Shown: positions 22,088 to 60,237, counted from the stretch's first letter. The stretch is DNA of 63,293 nt from an uncultured Candidatus Saccharibacteria bacterium (GCA_964354985.1 CAYHBR010000004.1:1-63293), one strand, 5' to 3'. Numbers and translations are program-made. The notes: a model not told the origin generated them from the sequence alone.

Positions 22088-22104
22088 TAAAAAAATAGAG
22101 TACA

Positions 22105-22131
22105 AAAAGACTGAAAAACTTCAGTCTTTTT
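22105..22131 (+). terminator. intrinsic terminator
   Basis: aaaaagactgaa-aaac-ttcagtcttttt followed by T-rich sequence. Confidence 0.8.
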
Positions 22132-22181: not shown

Positions 22182-22748
22182 TTATTTTAACAAAGTTAAT
22201 ATTTCCGGTAATTCTTTTACTCCATCTTCTTCTGTAAAGTGCCCTCTATTTTCTAGTATATCCACCTTTGCATTAAGTTCATTTATAAATATATTTTTAT
22301 TTTCATTAACGAAACCGTATGTGTCATTACTTGAAAGGAATACTTGTATGTTTGAGCAAATTTTGCCTACTTTTGCAAAATTAATTGAATGTTCTATCCA
22401 TGGCTTCGCTAGATCTTGCGTTTCCTTATCCTCAAGATTATCAAGATTAAACCACCCGGCAACAAAAACAACTTTTGCGACTTTTGCCCCAATAGGCAGT
22501 GTCTCGAAAAAACGCATAATTGTTTGGCAACCAATTGAATGACCAATAAATAATGTATGTTCATCTGGCACCATAATTAAATTCTGGAGAAAAGAAACGC
22601 GTTCTTCTATCACTGGATGATCGGTGTTAGGCATTTCAGGTACAAATACTTCGTAACCGAGAAGTTCAAGCTCGTTTTTTATCCAAGGATACCAATCACT
22701 TTGTGGGGTACCGCCCCAACGATGTATGATGTAGGCTTTTTTATTCAT
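22182..22748 (-). CDS. alpha/beta serine hydrolase, RBBP9/YdeN (Ser_hydrolase) type
   Basis: 188 aa: AYIIHRWGGTPQSDWYPW, nucleophile elbow GHSIG and a C-terminal GHF. Confidence 0.72.
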   Translation of the reverse strand: MNKKAYIIHRWGGTPQSDWYPWIKNELELLGYEVFVPEMPNTDHPVIEERVSFLQNLIMVPDEHTLFIGHSIGCQTIMRFFETLPIGAKVAKVVFVAGWFNLDNLEDKETQDLAKPWIEHSINFAKVGKICSNIQVFLSSNDTYGFVNENKNIFINELNAKVDILENRGHFTEEDGVKELPEILTLLK

Positions 22749-23511
22749 ATTTATAATTATATGTTTCTAAGTCAATGCGGGTAAAATCAATTAATTTTTT
22801 TGATTCCAAATCGTATGAGCAGTTTTGATAAGGGTTTTCTGGAACATCCAATTCCAATGGATTTTGCTGGTACACATACACTTGTCCTTTGAGTGGAACA
22901 CCTGGGTAACACCAAAGTACCCATTCTTCTCTCCCCTGAATATATTCGTTTGGAAAAAATATTTGTTTTTTAGCAACTAGATAGAATAAAAAATGTTCCT
23001 CAAGAAAAAAATTCTCTTGCTCTGGAGTAATTTCACGTCCACAAAATACGGCATCTTCTTTAACATATTTCTGAAATAGGACATCACCTAGGTACCACTT
23101 CTTAAAATCAATAAAATTCTGTTCAATATTTGCACCCTTGTAATCTAAATATAGCTGATTCCAAACTTCATAAGAAAATGCTTGCTGGATTTGAAAGCGG
23201 TCTTTTTCTTTATTAAGTAGATTTTTAAAGCCATTATTATGCCTCAAAATAAGATTCATAAATTTACCCTTTAACTCCGTTGCTGGCTTTCTTGAGTTGA
23301 GGTAAAGAGAATCACCATAAACAAGATTTAGGCCAATTTTTGGATCAGATATTTTAGCAGGAGAAAAATGTTTTAAATATTCTATCAATTGCACTGGTGA
23401 TTGGCCTGTTCTGTGTTCTACCCTAGCAAGAGATATTGGAAAAACCAAAATGCCATAACCTTTCGGGAATTTATTTATATCAAAGAAAGTGTTTTTTGGA
23501 ATATTTTTCAT
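22741..23511 (-). CDS. hypothetical protein with cyclodipeptide-synthase-like (XYP-type) sequence motifs
   Basis: 256 aa. The segments GILVFPISLARVEH, LNLVYGDSLY, FFLEEHFLFYLV and VLWCYPGVP resemble, in the same order and similar spacing, the CDPS segments recalled from AlbC: GISAGNSYF (Ser37), VVYVDTHI, YVLAEAPLF (Y178/E182) and VLCYH (Y202). The YP pair instead of YH is the XYP-subfamily hallmark. This is a weak, memory-based comparison. Confidence 0.35.
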   Translation of the reverse strand: MKNIPKNTFFDINKFPKGYGILVFPISLARVEHRTGQSPVQLIEYLKHFSPAKISDPKIGLNLVYGDSLYLNSRKPATELKGKFMNLILRHNNGFKNLLNKEKDRFQIQQAFSYEVWNQLYLDYKGANIEQNFIDFKKWYLGDVLFQKYVKEDAVFCGREITPEQENFFLEEHFLFYLVAKKQIFFPNEYIQGREEWVLWCYPGVPLKGQVYVYQQNPLELDVPENPYQNCSYDLESKKLIDFTRIDLETYNYKYE

Positions 23512-23512
23512 T

Positions 23513-24058
23513 TTATTTCATCATTTTTAGTAATGCATCTCTCGCCTCGGGCAACTCATGCCAATTTGCTTTTCCACTGAGGTGCCCACCTCCTACAACT
23601 GTCACCAATTCACTATCAAGATGCTCTGCAAGTTTTTTACCTTCATCGTATGGAATGTTTGGGTCATTGTCGCCATGAATGACAACAAAATGTTTTGCAT
23701 TACTTTTAATTTTTGAGAAATTTAATGGCTCATTGTAAAAAGAAGAAAGTACTCCAGATTTTGGTTTTCCAAAACGCCCAGAAACCAAAACGACACCCTC
23801 TATTGAATGAGTAGCTTGTTCTAGGTATCTAAGCACCGCTCTCGCACCAAGACTATGCCCAACTAAATATATTTCTATGTCAGCCTCAATTACATTGGAG
23901 AGCACAGTAATCCAACTTTCGCATGTAGGCTCTAGCCCAAGTGGCATTGGTAGCGCACACGCATACACACCCTCTTTATCAAGCTCTCGCATAAGCCAAG
24001 GACGCCAAGCTTTATTTGGCGATGAATCGAGACCGTGAATTATAAATACTTTTTTCAT
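23513..24058 (-). CDS. alpha/beta serine hydrolase, RBBP9/YdeN (Ser_hydrolase) type (paralogue of 22182..22748)
   Basis: 181 aa: VFIIHGLDSSPNKAWRPWL, GHSLG, GGGHL. Confidence 0.72.
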   Translation of the reverse strand: MKKVFIIHGLDSSPNKAWRPWLMRELDKEGVYACALPMPLGLEPTCESWITVLSNVIEADIEIYLVGHSLGARAVLRYLEQATHSIEGVVLVSGRFGKPKSGVLSSFYNEPLNFSKIKSNAKHFVVIHGDNDPNIPYDEGKKLAEHLDSELVTVVGGGHLSGKANWHELPEARDALLKMMK

Positions 24059-24666
24059 ACTGCTTTCTTAATGATAAACCAATTCCAAAAATGTCGCGCA
24101 CTTCCATTTATTTTTCCTGATCGTACAACTTTCCAGCCATGTTTTATAACCTCGTCTTTAAATTCCTTTTTGCTTAAAAAAGTAAAGTGTCTTGCGTCTT
24201 GTTGTGCATCTCCAGGCTGAAAAGGAAACGGTATGTAACCAATGGCACCAGACTTGGTTAATGCATTAAGATTTAAAAAGACAGTACTCCAGTCCTGAGG
24301 TGGAATATGCATCAGTATTGCACCCATCCAAAATGCATCATACTTTTTATGTGGTAATGTTGCTTTTGCAGTTATATCGCCATTAACAAATGTTTGATTA
24401 GAAAAACGTCGTTTCGCAATAGAGATCATTTTTTTACTAAAATCGAGACCCGTGTAATGAAGATCACTCCCCATGCCCATAAACAGAGGTACATGAATTC
24501 CCCACGCGCAACCAATATCAATCACATTATTTCCTTTTTCAAGCATAGACCTAAAAAGTGGAAATCGTTTTTCGTGAAAAAAAGAATTGGTCTTTTCCTT
24601 TGTCCAATTTTCAGCATTGTCGTCGTAGTACTTTTTATTTTGTTTCTGAATTATAATATCTACCAT
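24055..24666 (-). CDS. class I SAM-dependent methyltransferase
   Basis: Motif I is VIDIGCAWG. It has the Methyltransf_11/25-like spacing (YDAFWMGAILMHIP). Confidence 0.75.
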   Translation of the reverse strand: MVDIIIQKQNKKYYDDNAENWTKEKTNSFFHEKRFPLFRSMLEKGNNVIDIGCAWGIHVPLFMGMGSDLHYTGLDFSKKMISIAKRRFSNQTFVNGDITAKATLPHKKYDAFWMGAILMHIPPQDWSTVFLNLNALTKSGAIGYIPFPFQPGDAQQDARHFTFLSKKEFKDEVIKHGWKVVRSGKINGSARHFWNWFIIKKAV

Positions 24667-27600
24667 TTATTTTTCTATCTTAACTTTTAATATAGAATCG
24701 GCGATTTTAACCTCTTCCCCATCATTTACATCAAAACTTATTTTCGAAACCATGACAGTTTTTTTGATATCATCGACAAATTTTTCAATCAAGTTTCTGC
24801 CTGATTCATCGGTTTCTATAATTAGTGAAATCGTATCAGACGGAGTGAGACCAGAGACCCTGCGCATATCCTGCAGCGCACGAATGAGTTCACGGACATT
24901 GCCTTCGGCGCGAAGCTCTGGGGTGATCTCAGTATCAAGAACAAATATCGCTTCTTTTTGAGCATCATCAAAAAATGTAAAATCAATATTTTTTACATTT
25001 ATTTCATCTTTAATAATTTCTAGATAATCAACCCAGTTGTCAGATAGTGTTATTCTATTTTGAGAAATCACAAACCTCGAGAGTGGTTGCCTCACTGGAA
25101 TTTTATTTTCCTGACGAGCAGCCAGTGCTTTTTCAACAATGCTTCGCGCGCGAGTCATATCAGAGATAACATTTTCGTTTACTTTGCCTGCAACTGGCCA
25201 AGTCGAAAGGTGCACACTTTCGGCGTCTGCATTTTTTTCGCGTGCGAGATTTTTTTCGTCTCCAACGATTTTCAATTTCTGCCAAATATCTTCGGCGGCA
25301 AATGGCGCAAATGGCGCGAGTACCTGCGAAAGTTTTTTGAGCACTATATATAATGTCTGCTTTGCATGTTGTGTGTCGATTGTGTCGCGTGTATTTTCTG
25401 CACCTTCATTTTTTGTATAATCATGTTTCAATCGGTCGCGCGAACGGCGCAAATACCAAGTCGACATGTCACCAATAAAATCACGAATTGCACGAACTGG
25501 TTCGATCATTCGGTAGCCATCGAGTGAATTTGTTGTTTCGGCAATCAATTGATTGAGACGTGTCAAAATCCATTGGTCTAAAACATTTTTGGATTTTTCG
25601 ACAGCACTTTCTGCTGTTGCCTCAAGCACCACATCTCGATAGAGTTCGTAGAAAGCCAAGACATTGTAAGTCAGTCCAAGCGTTTTACTTGCAAGTTCAC
25701 GCACGACTGCTTCATCGTAGTTTTTTCCTTCGCCTGGCTGGTTAACTGAGAACATCCAGAGACGCAAAACATCGACGCCATATTTATCCATTTGCTCCCA
25801 CGGATTTACAATGTTGCCGATAGACTTCGACATTTTTTTGCCGTCTTTGTCGAGCAAGTGTCCGAGACAAATAACATTTTTGTACGGCGTTCCGCGACCC
25901 ATGAGTACACCGACAGCGAGCAGTGTGTAGAACCAGCCACGAGTCTGATCGATCGCTTCTGAAATAAAGTCAGCTGGGTAGCCTTTCGTTTCGATCCATT
26001 CTTTATTTTCAAATGGATAGTGATCTTGGGCAAACGGCATCGAACCCGAGTCGAACCAAACATCCATAACTTCCTTGACACGACGAAATTCCTTGCCATC
26101 TTTTTCGAGCACAATGTCGTCGATAAATGGACGGTGCGGATCTAGCTCAAAATTTTCGTTGTGTGGAAATGGCGCGAAGTCAATTTTTTTATACTCCGCA
26201 TTTTTGAAATAATGATAACCGGGAATTCCTGAAATAGCATCGAGCGACTGCTGTGGCGAAAACATTTTAGCTGAAGTATCAAGTAGCCACGCCGGACCAC
26301 CGTGTGTGACTATCAAGATCTTTTTGCCACTATACTTAGTTTCAATATCAAATATAAAATCGAGCACACGCTTTCTAACATCAGCATATGACTCACCACC
26401 AACTGGTGCAGTCGTAAAATACTCAGCTGTTTTTGGAAAAGCAGAGTGGTACTCATCCCAAGTTTTTCCATCGTAGGTCTCACCGAGTTGAAATTCGATC
26501 AAGCGAATATCCTCTATTACTGCACTCGCGTCGAGGCCAAAAATTTTGGCTATTTCTTCAGCGGTTTCTTTGGTTCGACTGAGTGGTGAATAGAAAATAT
26601 AATCGAGACTTGTTTCAGATCTTATTTTTTCTGCCGTATCCGCCACTGTTTTTTTACCATTTTCTGTGAGGCTCGATTTTTCACTGAGTTCATCGGTGAT
26701 AAGATTTAGTAAATTTGAATCTGTCTCTCCGTGGCGCACTGCGTAATAAGTATTTCCACTACGCTTTGTAAGTTTTCGAATAGTCTCAAAAGAGTCGGCA
26801 ATTATTTTTTCGCCATCCTCGGCAATCCAAATCGGCAGAGGTGTTCCCCAATATCGTTCGCGTGAAATTGCCCAGTCTTTGACTTCGCGAATCCATTCGC
26901 CAAAACGACCTTCTTTGATATGCTCCGGCTCCCAATTTATTTTTTCGTTTTCAGCAACCAACTGGTCTCGCATTTTTGACATAGCAATGTACCAAGAATC
27001 CCGCGCATAATAAATGAGCGGAGTTTTGCAACGCCAGCAGTGTGGGTAGTTATGTTCAAATTTCTTTTTATCAAAAAGAAGTGAACCGGTCGGGCGATTT
27101 GCTAGGTCTTTTATGATGTCGATTGCAACATCTTCGTCTTTTACAAAACGGCCTTCAAGAAAATCTGTACCTTTAATAAATTTACCTTCGACATCGACAG
27201 TGTGGAATTTGGGCAAACCAACTTTTGAACCAAGTTCAAAGTCGTCAGCGCCGTACATGGACGCAATATGGACAATTCCAGTACCGTCTTCGGTCGTGAC
27301 GAAATCCGCCGCGTAGACTTTGTACGCATTTGGCATTTTTTCTTTTTCGCTATTTTTTTCTTCCGCCGAGATAATATTGCTAAGGTATGGATAAAGTGGT
27401 TCGTATTCCATGCCGACCATTTGGTCTCCGGTAAATGAAGTTACAATTTCTAAATTATCACCTAAAGTTTGCTTTCTTTCATCAGCAATAATTAATATTT
27501 CATCATCTTTTTTTATAAAAACATAATTAATATTTCCACCCACAGCCAAAGCCACATTACCTGGTAATGTCCATGGTGTCGTTGTCCAAGCCAACAAATA

Positions 27601-28305
27601 ACAAACATACTCTTTTCCATCTTCGAATTTAAGTTTATTTTTTAGCTTAAATTTCGCCGTCAGAGAAAGATCTTTGACATCTGCGTAGCCTTGCGCGAGC
27701 TCATGTGTCGCAAGAGCAGTTCCGCAACGCGCGCACCATGGCACGATTCGGTAGTCTTTGTAGAGCAAACCTTGTTCGTCGACGCGTTTGACTATACTCC
27801 AAAGTGATTCGACATAATTGGTATCAAAAGTATAGTAAGCTTTTGACTTGTCTACCCAGTAGCCGATGCGATCGGTAAAACTTTCCCAATCAGCGATAAA
27901 TTCAAAAACACTTTCGCGACATTCGCGATTAAACTTTGCAACTCCATATTCTTCAATTTCTTTTTTTGACTTGAGACCCAACTTTTTTTCAATCTGAAGT
28001 TCAACAGGCAAACCGTGAGTGTCCCAACCAGCGCGACGAGGCACACGAAAGCCTTGCATCGTTTTATAGCGAGGCATGACATCTTTGAAAGCCCGAGCTT
28101 CAAGGTGATGGAGTGCAGGCTTGGCATTGGCTGTCGGTGGGCCTTCGTAAAAAACATATTCACCTTTTGGAGCAACTTTTTCAAGAGTTTTCTGGAAAAT
28201 TTTCTGCTCTGCCCAAAAATGCAGCACGGCTTCTTCCCTCAGTGCTTGCACTGACTTGGTTGGTTGGTCTTTTTCTTGATTTTTTTCTTTTTCGTTATCT
28301 TTCAT
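24667..28305 (-). CDS. ileS: isoleucine--tRNA ligase carrying an inserted histidine-phosphatase (PGAM-like) domain
   Basis: PPTANAKPALHHLEAR (HIGH region), WTTTPWTLPGN (editing domain), WAISRERYWGTPLPIW, DVWFDSGS and KMSKSIGN. At 1212 aa it is about 200 aa longer than usual, because of the insert at aa ~518-715 (RHGETDSN ... IVTHGG). Confidence 0.93.
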   Translation of the reverse strand: MKDNEKEKNQEKDQPTKSVQALREEAVLHFWAEQKIFQKTLEKVAPKGEYVFYEGPPTANAKPALHHLEARAFKDVMPRYKTMQGFRVPRRAGWDTHGLPVELQIEKKLGLKSKKEIEEYGVAKFNRECRESVFEFIADWESFTDRIGYWVDKSKAYYTFDTNYVESLWSIVKRVDEQGLLYKDYRIVPWCARCGTALATHELAQGYADVKDLSLTAKFKLKNKLKFEDGKEYVCYLLAWTTTPWTLPGNVALAVGGNINYVFIKKDDEILIIADERKQTLGDNLEIVTSFTGDQMVGMEYEPLYPYLSNIISAEEKNSEKEKMPNAYKVYAADFVTTEDGTGIVHIASMYGADDFELGSKVGLPKFHTVDVEGKFIKGTDFLEGRFVKDEDVAIDIIKDLANRPTGSLLFDKKKFEHNYPHCWRCKTPLIYYARDSWYIAMSKMRDQLVAENEKINWEPEHIKEGRFGEWIREVKDWAISRERYWGTPLPIWIAEDGEKIIADSFETIRKLTKRSGNTYYAVRHGETDSNLLNLITDELSEKSSLTENGKKTVADTAEKIRSETSLDYIFYSPLSRTKETAEEIAKIFGLDASAVIEDIRLIEFQLGETYDGKTWDEYHSAFPKTAEYFTTAPVGGESYADVRKRVLDFIFDIETKYSGKKILIVTHGGPAWLLDTSAKMFSPQQSLDAISGIPGYHYFKNAEYKKIDFAPFPHNENFELDPHRPFIDDIVLEKDGKEFRRVKEVMDVWFDSGSMPFAQDHYPFENKEWIETKGYPADFISEAIDQTRGWFYTLLAVGVLMGRGTPYKNVICLGHLLDKDGKKMSKSIGNIVNPWEQMDKYGVDVLRLWMFSVNQPGEGKNYDEAVVRELASKTLGLTYNVLAFYELYRDVVLEATAESAVEKSKNVLDQWILTRLNQLIAETTNSLDGYRMIEPVRAIRDFIGDMSTWYLRRSRDRLKHDYTKNEGAENTRDTIDTQHAKQTLYIVLKKLSQVLAPFAPFAAEDIWQKLKIVGDEKNLAREKNADAESVHLSTWPVAGKVNENVISDMTRARSIVEKALAARQENKIPVRQPLSRFVISQNRITLSDNWVDYLEIIKDEINVKNIDFTFFDDAQKEAIFVLDTEITPELRAEGNVRELIRALQDMRRVSGLTPSDTISLIIETDESGRNLIEKFVDDIKKTVMVSKISFDVNDGEEVKIADSILKVKIEK

Positions 28306-28345
28306 ATTTATTTATTTAAAATTAATATTTTCTTAATCTTGATTG

Positions 28346-28403
28346 TATAAAATAAAAACTCGCCCACGAATTACGATTGTAAAAATCATAATCCAAGGGC
28401 GAG
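28346..28403 (-). terminator. T-box-controlled intrinsic terminator
   Basis: Minus strand: CUCGCCC...(AUUAUGAUU-UUUAC-AAUCGUAAU)...GGGCGAG followed by UUUUUAUUUU. Confidence 0.8.
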
Positions 28404-28650
28404 CTTCTTTGTTCTGCGCGACAATCTGCCGGCAACGAGCACGCGGTACCACCTTGTTTTTTTGCATCAGGATTTTGCAAAAGCTCTGCAAAACAACGAC
28501 ACAACTCATTGTTGCTATTACGGGCAACCCGCCGGATTTTACTCACCTTCCTTTCGGTTCCCAACTTTTAGTTTGGGCTGTTTCGCATTAAAATGCAAAT
28601 CAGGCTTTCTTTCCAGAGCTCAGGGGTGATGACCCCTTCAGCGCTTGTGA
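28346..28650 (-). promoter_or_regulatory. T-box riboswitch leader of ileS
   Basis: The minus strand carries the exact T-box core GGUGGUACCGCG (plus-strand 28442-28453). An antiterminator can be drawn as CAAGG[UGGUACC]GCG...CGC-CCUUG, and its 3' strand (AGCUCGCCCUUG) is also the 5' arm of the terminator. UGGU fits a tRNA with discriminator A. ileS lies downstream. Confidence 0.85.
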
Positions 28651-28654
28651 CCTA

Positions 28655-28682
28655 ACTATATGAGAAAATAGGAATTTTGCAA
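28655..28682 (-). promoter_or_regulatory. sigma70-like promoter for the T-box leader
   Basis: Minus strand: TTGCAA, 16 nt, TATAGT. Confidence 0.5.
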
Positions 28683-28740
28683 GAAAAAAAAATGACAAAT
28701 AAAAAAACTCCCCTTTCGAGGAGCCTTACTATGGGGGAAA

Positions 28741-29466
28741 CTAATTTAAAATCCGAATTCCTTGTTCTTTCGAAATACGATGCTCGCGAGTCGCACCATT
28801 TGATGATTCCCAACCGGGCATCATTTTCAAAGTTTTTATATGTCCACTTTTTAAAACTGGAACATATACTTCTTCCAAAATAGGATTTTCTGTACCCGAA
28901 AATTTTTCCGGAAATCTTGCGCCAATTTCTCTGAAAATATCCTCAAAAGGCGTCTGATTGAAAACTAAATGATTTTTATTGGTTGTATCAATAACATGTT
29001 GATGAAACAACTCAATGTTTTTTTTACGATCGCCTGTTCCGCCCGTTGAAATTGGACCGGAAACTAACACCCAATTTTCTCCTCTTTTCAAAATATTCAT
29101 AAATATTTCACGAACAGCAGGGAGTGAGTCCGGCGTAAATTCAAGCGAATACAGATGAAACAAATCTGATTTGGTGATATGAGGCCGATGATTGAAAGTT
29201 ATTTCTTCTTCAACATTCTCATACGCCCATCTCTTTTCGTCAAAAAAAGGTTCACTGAATCCATCAATAAAAATAGGTAAGCAAGTTGCGTTCATGTTCG
29301 GGTCAATCGATTTACAAATCCGGAGACTTTTAATCTCATTTGTAGCCTGAGCCAAACGATACAAATCGTGCCAATTTTCATGATCACTGTATTTTTTTTG
29401 GTTTTGACTAAAAACATTTTTAATAAGCCCGTGAAGCAAATGGGAGTTTTTGGCATATCTTTTCAT
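28741..29466 (-). CDS. hypothetical protein with a C-terminal DUF4406 / nucleoside 2-deoxyribosyltransferase-like domain
   Basis: VLVSGPISTGGTGDRKKNIELF ... MPGWESSNGATREHRISKEQGIRI fits the DUF4406 pattern (GP..G....N...F ... W..S.GA..E). ATG (MKRYAK) at 29466 is preferred over the TTG at 29520. Confidence 0.4.
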   Translation of the reverse strand: MKRYAKNSHLLHGLIKNVFSQNQKKYSDHENWHDLYRLAQATNEIKSLRICKSIDPNMNATCLPIFIDGFSEPFFDEKRWAYENVEEEITFNHRPHITKSDLFHLYSLEFTPDSLPAVREIFMNILKRGENWVLVSGPISTGGTGDRKKNIELFHQHVIDTTNKNHLVFNQTPFEDIFREIGARFPEKFSGTENPILEEVYVPVLKSGHIKTLKMMPGWESSNGATREHRISKEQGIRILN

Positions 29467-29521
29467 GGTACATTTTTTAGAGTTTGAGATGCATAGTACT
29501 AGAAAACAACTTATTGTCAAA

Positions 29522-31234
29522 CTACATTTTCTCAGGAACTTTTATTCCGAGCAAATACAATCCTTTAGAGAGAACGTTTGCAACTGCACCAGACACAGCG
29601 ACACGGTAACCGCTTGTCGTATCAGTTTCAGAAATTATTTGTTCGTTTGCATAAAAATTGTTAAATGCGCCAGCTAGTTCTATGAGATATGTCGCAATGT
29701 GGTGTGGTGCACGATCTTCTATCGCACGGAGAGTGACTGCCGGAAAACGCTCGAGAATTCTTTCGATGTTTATTGTGACATCTGTGGGATTTTTAAGACT
29801 TGGTTTTATACCAGCTTCTTTTGATTTGCGACAGATGGAGCGCGCACGAGTTGCTGAGTACTGCAGGTACGGACCAGAGTCACCATCGAAAGAAATTGAT
29901 TTATCAAAATCAAAAATAATATCGCTTCCTATTCCGGAATGCAATATCGAAAATTTTATAGCAGATACTCCGACAGCCTCAGCAACTACTGCTCTTTCTT
30001 CAGCAGTGAAGTCACGTTCTTTGATAATTTCCAAGATAGATTCTTTGGCATCACGAATAAGTGACTCTCCGGTTATAACATTGCCCCTCCTTGAACTCAT
30101 TTTGCCTGCCGCGAAACGCATCATTCCGTGTGTAATGTGTTCCATTTTTTCGGCATAGTTTTCTTCTTTGAACATCTGGCGAATTGCTTCCGTCACAACT
30201 TCCATATAATCTTTTTGCTCAATGGCTGTTGTAACAATAGAAAGATCCGGATTTATTTTAGTGAATTTCTCAACAGTAAGTGCCAATTCTTTTGCGTCGT
30301 ATAAAGGCAGTCCTTGGCTTGTTAAAAATACGCGGGTATGCAACTTTTTATTAAACTTTTCTGCTCGAAAAATAACAGCACCATCTGATTCTTCAAAAAC
30401 ACCTTTTTCCAAATACTCACGAACCAAAGCCACTCCGTGAGAAGCGACTTCTGATTCGAAAAAATAATTATCAAATTTTGTACCAAGAGTTTTGTATATC
30501 TCTTCAAATGCTTCAAGTGTAACCTTGCGTCCTTCAGCGTAAAGTTCTTTGTATTCTGCATCGCCCTCATATAGTTTTTTATTTAAAATATCAATCTCAT
30601 TTTTGACGCCTTCCTCGTCTTCATACAGAGCACTGCCGAAAGCGTAACACTCGCCAATATAGTCAGCTTTTTCACTCACTGTTTTTCCGAGTATCCCTTG
30701 TCCTTTTTTCAATATACCAAACATTGTTTTTGCAACATGAAGTCCTATGTCTCCCTGATAATTTGCGCGAACAACCTCGCCTCCGTGAAAATCAATCAGG
30801 CGGGCGATCGATTCCCCTATTGCATTCGACATCAAGTGACCAATATGAAAAGGCTTGAACGGGTTTGGTTGGGTGTACTCAACGACAACTTTTTTTGTTT
30901 CAAATAAATCACTTCTTCCAAAAAGATCGCCGTCGCGAAGAATAAATTCTAGGATACCGGTAAAATATTCACGCGATAAATTGAAATTTATAAAACCTGG
31001 TCCGGCGACATTCACTGAATCAATATATGGGGGTAGGTTGTCTTTCATCTCAGTGACGATAGCCTGCGCAATAGTAACTGGTGACTTTCCATACTGCTTT
31101 GAAATACTAAGTGCCACAGAAGACATATAGTCACCGTGTCCCAGTTCTTTTGGGTACATTATTTCTGCTTTGCCGACCAAAAAGCCGACCTTGCGCATTG
31201 TGTCTTCTAAAAATGTTTGGAGTTTATCTTTCAT
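29522..31234 (-). CDS. argS: arginine--tRNA ligase
   Basis: EYTQPNPFKPFHIGHLMSNAIG (HIGH), a DALR anticodon-binding C-terminus and the typical terminal Met. Confidence 0.95.
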   Translation of the reverse strand: MKDKLQTFLEDTMRKVGFLVGKAEIMYPKELGHGDYMSSVALSISKQYGKSPVTIAQAIVTEMKDNLPPYIDSVNVAGPGFINFNLSREYFTGILEFILRDGDLFGRSDLFETKKVVVEYTQPNPFKPFHIGHLMSNAIGESIARLIDFHGGEVVRANYQGDIGLHVAKTMFGILKKGQGILGKTVSEKADYIGECYAFGSALYEDEEGVKNEIDILNKKLYEGDAEYKELYAEGRKVTLEAFEEIYKTLGTKFDNYFFESEVASHGVALVREYLEKGVFEESDGAVIFRAEKFNKKLHTRVFLTSQGLPLYDAKELALTVEKFTKINPDLSIVTTAIEQKDYMEVVTEAIRQMFKEENYAEKMEHITHGMMRFAAGKMSSRRGNVITGESLIRDAKESILEIIKERDFTAEERAVVAEAVGVSAIKFSILHSGIGSDIIFDFDKSISFDGDSGPYLQYSATRARSICRKSKEAGIKPSLKNPTDVTINIERILERFPAVTLRAIEDRAPHHIATYLIELAGAFNNFYANEQIISETDTTSGYRVAVSGAVANVLSKGLYLLGIKVPEKM

Positions 31235-60020: not shown

Positions 60021-60127
60021 AAAAAGCTCCTAGCCAGTATGATAACCTTGCGGTTACCCATACCCCTTTCGGGATATGACACGGTCTGTGCAAACTCTGA
60101 CTAGGAGTTTTTTATCACAGACCGTGT
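60021..60127 (-). ncRNA. structured 5' leader / unclassified RNA element upstream of 58845..59987
   Basis: The minus-strand RNA has a 12-bp helix ACACGGUCUGUG/CACAGACCGUGU and two adjacent GNRA-capped hairpins (CAUAUCCC-GAAA-GGGGUAUG and GGUAACC-GCAA-GGUUAUC). It also has a long-range helix CUCCUAG/CUAGGAG followed by CUUUUU. Both small hairpins have a G-U wobble on the minus strand where the plus strand would have an A-C or C-A mismatch. Confidence 0.5.
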
Positions 60128-60237
60128 TTGCGACCATGCCTTTATTTTTAAAGGTTTAGGTCTTCTATTAAGTTATGTTGCTATTATGCCAAATTTAAGG
60201 TTAAAAAGCTAATTTTTAGAAACATCTAAATTTTCGC

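Follow-up and report, generated by a model that had tools for sequence, protein, structure and literature searches.

The 63,293-nucleotide stretch of DNA from an uncultured Candidatus Saccharibacteria bacterium analyzed here (GCA_964354985.1, CAYHBR010000004.1:1-63293; the whole stretch is referred to as the window) contains a five-gene locus that begins with ileS, the isoleucyl-tRNA synthetase (IleRS) gene, and whose fourth gene encodes a 256-residue protein, here called X. We conclude that X probably represents an unannotated and very divergent clade of the cyclodipeptide synthase (CDPS) superfamily, most likely using aminoacyl-tRNA and plausibly co-transcribed with ileS under the control of its T-box leader. 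The clade is found in Paceibacteria and related genomes of the Candidate Phyla Radiation (CPR), and the structural model together with residue conservation supports the view that it keeps the catalytic Ser, Glu, and Tyr of the CDPS acyl-enzyme mechanism.

Predicted structure of X

The AlphaFold2 model of X, built from an alignment of 53 relatives, has a mean predicted local distance difference test score of 93.0 and a predicted template modeling (TM) score of 0.90. In a Foldseek search of the PDB, ranks 1-31 are all occupied by CDPSs, including AlbC, Rv2275, YvmC, BtCDPS, Shae-CDPS, Fdum-CDPS, and others, with E-values of 5e-5 to 4.5e-3, probabilities of 0.98-1.00, and TM-scores of 0.41-0.52 when normalized by the query and 0.45-0.60 by the target; the alignments show 11-16% identity. 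AlbC, YvmC, and Rv2275, against which the original prediction, made from the sequence of the window alone, had proposed such a comparison, are all among these 31 matches. The tryptophanyl- and tyrosyl-tRNA synthetases (TrpRS and TyrRS) appear from rank 32, mixed with further CDPS entries. In the viral structure library BFVD, the first two ranks are a phage CDPS and a megavirus CDPS, and TyrRS follows within the next two ranks.

As a yardstick, AlbC was modeled and searched in the same way. Its model matches the CDPSs of its own NYH subfamily with TM-scores of 0.8-0.9, the CDPSs of the XYP subfamily with TM-scores of 0.53-0.71 and E-values of about 1e-8, and ParcuCDPS, a proven CDPS, with TM-scores of 0.51-0.67 and E-values of 1e-5 to 6e-5. 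As the last values are comparable to those of X, X is about as distant from AlbC as ParcuCDPS is. The models thus support a CDPS fold for X.

Predicted catalytic residues and their conservation

Four catalytic residues are conserved in CDPSs, S37, Y178, E182, and Y202 (PMC7613923), and in the 53 canonical NYH CDPSs that we collected, G35, S37, W54, Y178, E182, P184, and Y202 are invariant. The original prediction had pointed to four CDPS-like segments in X; these segments are present, and the residues best conserved in the X family lie within them. Among 185 full-length relatives, 42 of them divergent, the five best-conserved of the 256 columns are Y202 and E172 (184 of 185 each), E171 and S27 (182 each), and F168 (181). 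Four of these, S27, F168, E172, and Y202, are the counterparts of AlbC S37, Y178, E182, and Y202. Since the positions were chosen from a single sequence before any alignment was made, their conservation is an independent test; the chance that four positions named in advance all fall within the top five of 256 is, by our own calculation, about 3e-8, that is, 252/C(256,5).

The secondary-structure elements assigned by DSSP follow each other in the same order in the X and AlbC models. The serine ends the first core strand (residues 20-27 with S27 in X, 31-37 with S37 in AlbC), and this strand is followed by a 25-residue helix (77-101 in X, 82-106 in AlbC) and a five-residue strand (112-116 and 114-118, respectively). 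The aromatic residue and the glutamate, separated by three residues, lie in a long helix, F168 and E172 in helix 163-180 of X and Y178 and E182 in helix 169-193 of AlbC, and the next strand ends with Y202 in both proteins (197-202 in X, 198-202 in AlbC). The distances from the serine to the aromatic residue and to the glutamate, 141 and 145 residues, are the same in AlbC, in ParcuCDPS (S26, Y167, and E171; PMC7613923), and in X. Further, X carries an XYP-type signature, with R30 (Arg or Lys in 175 of 185 relatives) at the position corresponding to residue 40 and the pair Y202-P203, whose proline is found in 171 of 185.

Relatives of X and sequence searches

At least 167 proteins are closely related to X, and a search at E<=0.001 retrieves at least 229 representative clusters; all are unnamed and come from CPR genomes, those of Parcubacteria, Paceibacteria, and related groups. 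A relative is encoded in 107 species-level genomes. The family is strongly conserved, with 45-77% identity. We found no description of it in the literature searched.

Sequence profiles detect this relationship to CDPSs poorly. X has no match in Pfam, including the CDPS family PF16715 (E<=1), or in NCBIfam; in a Pfam scan of the 53 relatives, none matches PF16715 at E<=10; and searches of the PDB with phmmer and with a profile retrieve no CDPS chain. Standard hhalign comparison of X with CDPSs gives a probability of 0.13% for a 4-sequence CDPS alignment and of 1.65% (E 0.03) for a 53-sequence CDPS alignment, and global alignment of deeper profiles gives 0.3%. Greedy local alignment of the deeper profiles is colinear over the full length (P 3.4e-4, probability 38%) and pairs S27 with S37 and Y202 with Y202. 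Reciprocal hmmsearch runs in small databases give E-values of 7.7e-5 to 1e-3, and the CDPS helices alpha4-alpha6 always fall on X residues ~69-145. This weak signal is consistent with homology between X and CDPSs but is short of proof. The CDPS assignment made in the original prediction holds for the modeled fold, in which S27, F168, E172, and Y202-P203 stand at the positions of AlbC S37, Y178, E182, and Y202-H203, but not for PF16715 or standard profile-profile comparison; the profile search that the prediction had suggested as a check was empty for X and for the 53 relatives, and it was the structure search that placed CDPSs on top.

One relative of 525 amino acids (P0136) has a 280-residue N-terminal extension with a weak winged-helix hint, and its Glu-Glu pair is replaced by Asp-Asp. 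A defense-system or phage origin of X was considered and rejected, as there were no PADLOC or PHROG matches. Twelve of 80 X loci come from genomes labeled by their submitters as DPANN archaea, namely Woesearchaeota, Pacearchaeota, and Nanoarchaeota (L056, L064, L067, L070, L072, L074, L075, L077, L081, and L083-L085). Possibly the family extends from CPR bacteria to DPANN archaea; alternatively, the assignment of these bins may be wrong.

Genomic context of X across relatives

The context of X was surveyed in 80 loci by clustering the three neighbors on each side and scanning 87 likely operonic neighbors with Pfam. In about 12 loci X follows ileS, with gaps of at most 15 nucleotides or a few inserted genes, and X in these loci is 51-77% identical to the window protein. 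Thus the link to ileS, whose conservation the original prediction had asked to be examined in relatives, does recur, but it is confined to one clade. In the other ~65 loci X lies amid unrelated, mostly housekeeping genes, such as aldolases, dnaX, dnaN, ftsZ, mltG, clpB, and an FAD-linked oxidase. No family-wide partner gene of X was found in the 80 loci apart from the clade-specific ileS; the minor themes are the FAD-linked oxidase (five loci), ClpB (three), NUDIX (three), SET-domain proteins (three), and PF06821 hydrolases (three).

The FAD-linked oxidase of 554-580 amino acids (FAD_binding_4 and FAD-oxidase_C domains) is encoded directly 3' of X in L009, L027, L050, L062, and L063, at a distance of 1-4 nucleotides in four loci and with a 29-nucleotide overlap in L062. 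A fructose-bisphosphate aldolase gene precedes X in two of these five loci.

The T-box leader of ileS

The features of the operon and its leader are listed in Table 1. The window scan at the Rfam gathering threshold gave no match to the T-box family RF00230; in a permissive scan the leader reaches 32.9 bits (local E-value 1.6e-5), whereas the gathering score is 93. The score is low because Stem I is ultrashort, with a 6-nucleotide loop in place of 76 model positions. The window leader lacks a long Stem I and the distal platform that binds the tRNA elbow, and a short distal hairpin is kept only in L008, which looks like an intermediate form. The antiterminator pairing is visible in the cmscan alignment, and the T-box motif GGUGGUACCGCG is also found upstream of ileS in L005, L007, L008, L018, and L036.

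In the six aligned ileS leaders the Stem I loop contains an invariant AUC-A, that is, an Ile codon followed by a purine, and the Stem I pairs covary among loci (GGGG/CCCC, GGAG/CUCC, GAGG/CCUC, and GGGA/UCCC). RNAalifold recovers Stem I, a GCGGG/CCCGC-type hairpin, and the long terminator hairpin with its U run from these leaders; in Stem I and the terminator together 9 pairs are altered on both sides, 7 of them in the terminator hairpin. The terminator, whose 5' arm shares nucleotides with the 3' strand of the antiterminator, lies ~45 nucleotides 5' of the ileS start codon. On this comparative sequence evidence, the leader is a real, Ile-specific, terminator-based T-box.

The combination of an ultrashort Stem I with an intrinsic terminator platform is unusual, because ultrashort Stem I elements are known mainly from translational actinobacterial T-boxes and the distal platform has been called essential in transcriptional ones (PMC7583486). 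The closest parallel is offered by the actinobacterial ileS T-boxes (Sherwood et al. 2015, reviewed in PMC7583486), which control the same gene with an AUC specifier, lack the distal elbow platform in Stem I, and keep a hairpin in the Stem II region. They are translational and act by Shine-Dalgarno sequestration, whereas in the window leader a U run follows a covarying hairpin, and the host is a CPR bacterium.

Table 1. Coordinates of the ileS-X operon, its leader, and flanking signals in the window.
Feature	Position	Strand	Size	Evidence or remark
Terminator of the gene upstream of the operon	28704-28727			
Promoter-like site TTGCAA-16-TATAGT, just 5' of the T-box leader	28655-28682	-		Consensus match only
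T-box leader	28340-28650	-		RF00230 match 28392-28650; conservation in six loci
Ultrashort Stem I GGGG-UCAUCA-CCCC	28623-28636	-		Specifier AUC at 28628-28630
T-box sequence GGUGGUACCGCG, antiterminator bulge pairing with the tRNA 3' end	28442-28453	-		Exact match
Intrinsic terminator of the leader	28349-28404	-		Long hairpin 28359-28404, then U run; read from the sequence
ileS	24667-28305	-	1212 aa	TIGR00392; tRNA-synt_1, Anticodon_1, and DUF5915 domains
His_Phos_1 (histidine phosphatase) domain within the IleRS catalytic core	26275-26745	-	aa 521-677	PF00300, E 1.3e-29
Methyltransferase, class I, S-adenosylmethionine (SAM)-dependent	24055-24666	-	203 aa	Methyltransf_25, E 9e-14
Ser_hydrolase A (PF06821)	23513-24058	-	181 aa	E 5.9e-23; GHSLG nucleophile motif
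X, divergent protein with predicted CDPS fold	22741-23511	-	256 aa	AlphaFold2 model, Foldseek, residue conservation, secondary-structure register
Predicted catalytic codons of X	S27 23431-23433; E172 22996-22998; Y202 22906-22908	-		
Ser_hydrolase B (PF06821)	22182-22748	-	188 aa	E 2e-17; GHSIG motif
Bidirectional terminator hairpin closing the operon and a convergent plus-strand gene	22104-22131	.		

Organization of the operon

The five genes are all on the minus strand and packed exactly as the original prediction had described, with junctions from ileS to hydrolase B of a 0-nucleotide gap, a 4-nucleotide overlap, a 1-nucleotide gap, and an 8-nucleotide overlap in the open reading frame listing. 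Promoter-like and terminator-like matches within the operon occur at the frequency expected by chance in this AT-rich region, and therefore internal signals can be neither demonstrated nor excluded. The predicted T-box stood up to analysis, and its Ile specificity is clear; co-transcription of the five genes behind it, which had been called very likely, we consider plausible. The GC content is 31.9% for X, 41.4% for ileS, 35.6% for the methyltransferase gene, and 34.9% for the hydrolase B gene, compared to 39.6% for the whole window.

The ileS product matches TIGR00392 with 850 bits (cut-off 621.4), and the match is split in two by an inserted His_Phos_1 domain with the RHG, SPLxR, GGE, and THG motifs intact in the translation. 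The same insertion is found in the IleRS of L005-L008, L013, L017, L018, L036, and L086, and it is always present in the ileS-X loci. We found no description of a phosphatase insertion in IleRS in the literature searched. A second ileS copy, considered as a possible self-resistance gene, is not found within the 63-kb window.

The arginyl-tRNA synthetase (ArgRS) gene and a gene for a 259-residue protein, whose sole domain match is a short C-terminal DUF4406, lie 5' of the operon on the minus strand (28741-29520 and 29522-31234). The pair also precedes ileS in L013, and the gene for the 259-residue protein does so in L006. Finally, a LOOT RNA (RF03000) is found on the minus strand at 60041-60162, with 88.2 bits against a gathering score of 46.4.

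Proposed function of X and alternative explanations

We suggest the following scheme. Transcription would start near 28655-28682 and enter the T-box leader, whose Stem I loop presents AUC. By the known T-box mechanism, uncharged tRNA-Ile would stabilize the antiterminator, and charged tRNA-Ile would let the hairpin at 28359-28404 and the following U run terminate transcription. Read-through would yield one mRNA for IleRS, the methyltransferase, hydrolase A, X, and hydrolase B. X would then bind an aminoacyl-tRNA, the aminoacyl group would move to Ser27 to form an acyl-enzyme, Glu172 would serve as the general base for the attack on a second aminoacyl-tRNA, and Tyr202 would assist release of the product, most simply as a cyclodipeptide. 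Aminoacyl-tRNA-dependent chemistry through a Ser27 ester would be the likeliest activity of X, and a cyclodipeptide its simplest product. The clade-limited co-transcription with ileS suggests that Ile-tRNA-Ile, supplied by the co-transcribed IleRS, could be one of the substrates, a tentative assignment based on position in the operon.

Several observations weigh against this interpretation. The residues of X were matched to those of AlbC through secondary-structure register and spacing. In the window protein P25 takes the place of G35 (of the 185 relatives, 144 have Pro and 28 have Gly here) and F168 that of Y178 (Phe in 181 of 185), two departures from the CDPS pattern already acknowledged in the original prediction; W54 and P184 have no counterpart in X. 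Tyr-to-Phe variants at the Y178 position remain active in XYP CDPSs (PMC7613923), and the phenylalanine therefore weakens the case for membership more than that for the mechanism. PF16715, NCBIfam, and PDB sequence searches are empty, and standard hhalign reaches a probability of only 0.1-1.7%. Further, the X family is unlike typical CDPSs in that it is strongly conserved and located among housekeeping genes and not in biosynthetic clusters, which fits a single conserved function that is not necessarily diketopiperazine synthesis. Finally, it would be paradoxical for a shortage of charged tRNA-Ile to induce an enzyme that uses up Ile-tRNA.

X could form the Ser27 acyl-enzyme but use a different acceptor for the aminoacyl or dipeptidyl group, for example a small molecule, a cell-envelope precursor, or a protein amine, or else release a linear product, which would be methylated in some lineages. 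We consider this tenable though unlikely. Two relatives that keep S27, E172, and Y202 (P0162 and P0169) carry a SET-domain methyltransferase fused to their C-terminus, and small SET genes that overlap X or start 1 nucleotide from it lie directly 3' in three loci (L028:4154-4657, L031:6722-7204, and L032:6749-7249); a SAM-dependent methyltransferase is encoded in the window operon as well. The family-wide conservation and housekeeping neighborhoods hint at one fixed substrate pair or acceptor, and the departures from CDPSs at G35, Y178, and P184 would also be in line with this explanation. However, Y202, the residue assigned to cyclization in CDPSs (PMC7613923), shares first place in conservation within the family, a partner gene related to an acceptor does not recur family-wide, and CDPSs fused to tailoring domains are known (PMC5816076), so that the methyltransferase link is also compatible with a diketopiperazine.

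An explanation that we hold to be possible, again with little confidence, places X in a third branch of CDPS-like enzymes, of housekeeping type, in CPR and DPANN-labeled genomes, which is tied to the T-box and which at Ile shortage would turn other aminoacyl-tRNAs into a starvation signal or a host-directed signal. This signal might be a diketopiperazine or else a novel product of aminoacyl transfer, to which SET or class I methyltransferases would add methyl groups in some lineages.

Could X instead be an aminoacyl-tRNA deacylase, a quality-control factor, or a tRNA-binding accessory factor of the branched-chain class I synthetases, in which the acyl-enzyme is hydrolyzed or tRNA is only bound? 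X adjoins ileS in ~12 loci, valS in L001/L002, leuS in L012, and tyrS in L081 (the TyrRS matches PRK08560), it would come under the ileS T-box, and its neighbors are housekeeping genes. But if the ileS clade is counted as one event, there are 4-5 independent synthetase adjacencies in ~60 contexts, near our rough own chance estimate of ~3, and for this reason synthetase adjacency was set aside as independent evidence. Moreover, the IleRS has a full-length N-terminal catalytic region (tRNA-synt_1, residues 27-516), which should include its own connective peptide 1 (CP1) editing domain, and simple hydrolysis does not need retention of both E172 and Y202. Such a role is improbable.

It is similarly improbable that the five genes form a dedicated biosynthetic cluster in which X makes a product that is then modified by the methyltransferase and the two hydrolases. 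A single leader precedes the closely spaced genes, and both hydrolases are bona fide members of PF06821 by score (82.1 bits for A and 64.3 for B, cut-off 22) and by the presence of GxSxG; they are 26% identical to each other. PF06821 homologs recur beside X in L005, L010, and L022, with the hydrolase gene located 3' of X in the window, L005, and L022, and SET methyltransferases are linked to X elsewhere. However, in the closest relatives the slot separating ileS from X is filled differently or not at all. It contains the methyltransferase and hydrolase A genes in the window, genes for two unrelated proteins of 242 and 404 amino acids with no family match in the closest relative, L086 (1890-3837; X 77% identical), and two hydrolase genes in L010, and it is empty in L006, L008, L013, and L018, where X directly follows ileS; a class I methyltransferase gene occupies it in the window only, among the ileS-X loci examined. 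The three genes thus look like cargo of a variable slot, and conservation does not support their being partners of X or established tailoring enzymes, the role for which the original prediction had considered them plausible.

Least probable, and in our opinion very unlikely, is that X has only the ancient Rossmann-like (HUP/class I synthetase) fold in common with CDPSs, a chemistry unrelated to tRNA, and a place next to ileS by inherited synteny: this would fit the absence of a significant sequence-profile link between X and CDPSs, the moderate TM-scores of 0.42-0.60 (root-mean-square deviation 4.5-6 Å), the unrelated neighbors at most X loci, and the lower GC content of X than of ileS, but CDPSs top two independent structure libraries in which nucleotidyltransferases and other HUP families do not appear at the top, and the four positions predicted from a single sequence beforehand are in the top five of 256 columns.

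Comparison with known enzymes

Our preferred assignment of X to a divergent CDPS clade can be placed among the known families as follows. With the NYH CDPSs (AlbC, 3OQV/4Q24; Rv2275, 2X9Q; YvmC, 3OQH; PF16715), X shares the predicted fold, the order of elements, the serine that ends the first core strand, the helix with the aromatic residue three residues before the glutamate, the strand ending with tyrosine, and the Ser-Glu spacing of 145. It differs in having Pro for G35, Phe for Y178, Pro for H203, and Arg for N40, and in having no W54 or P184. Compared to AlbC, X has a 10-residue insertion between the glutamate and the tyrosine, before strand 197-202, and ~25 extra C-terminal residues, whereas the N-terminal strand and helix of AlbC are missing.

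The XYP enzyme ParcuCDPS (7QB8) comes from Parcubacteria RAAC4_OD1_1, that is, from the same broad bacterial group as X, and shares with it a residue other than Asn three positions after the serine, the Tyr-Pro pair, and the triad of S26, Y167, and E171 corresponding to S27, F168, and E172. However, ParcuCDPS is a recognized CDPS for which synthesis of cyclo(His-Pro) and cyclo(His-Glu) has been demonstrated (PMC5816076), whereas X is not retrieved by CDPS profiles. Moreover, the solved XYP structures are not the best matches of X: as ParcuCDPS appears only at Foldseek rank 33 and below, X is not simply a close XYP relative.

The class Ic synthetases TyrRS and TrpRS have the Rossmann-like fold in common with X and are its next-best structural matches after CDPSs; genuine CDPSs have likewise been reported to have TyrRS and TrpRS as their next structural relatives (PMC12945691). 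Their Foldseek E-values are at least 100-fold weaker than those of CDPSs, no HIGH or KMSKS motif is seen in the translation of X, and X has no anticodon-binding domain.

Implications

In the 2017 census, all putative CDPSs fell into two subfamilies, NYH and XYP (PMC5816076). The X family is invisible to current CDPS profiles, yet it has the predicted fold and the catalytic Ser, Glu, and Tyr. Its inclusion would broaden the known sequence range of enzymes that form peptides from aminoacyl-tRNA, and it would be a source of new scaffolds or chemistry, among them natural fusions with SET methyltransferases. Should the starvation-signal explanation prove true, no aminoacyl-tRNA-consuming enzyme before X would have been seen to be directly controlled by a T-box. 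Two by-products of the analysis deserve attention in their own right, the terminator-type T-box with an ultrashort Stem I and the IleRS with a histidine-phosphatase insertion. CPR bacteria have tiny genomes with few recognizable biosynthetic pathways, and X provides a testable lead on the use of charged tRNA outside translation in these organisms.

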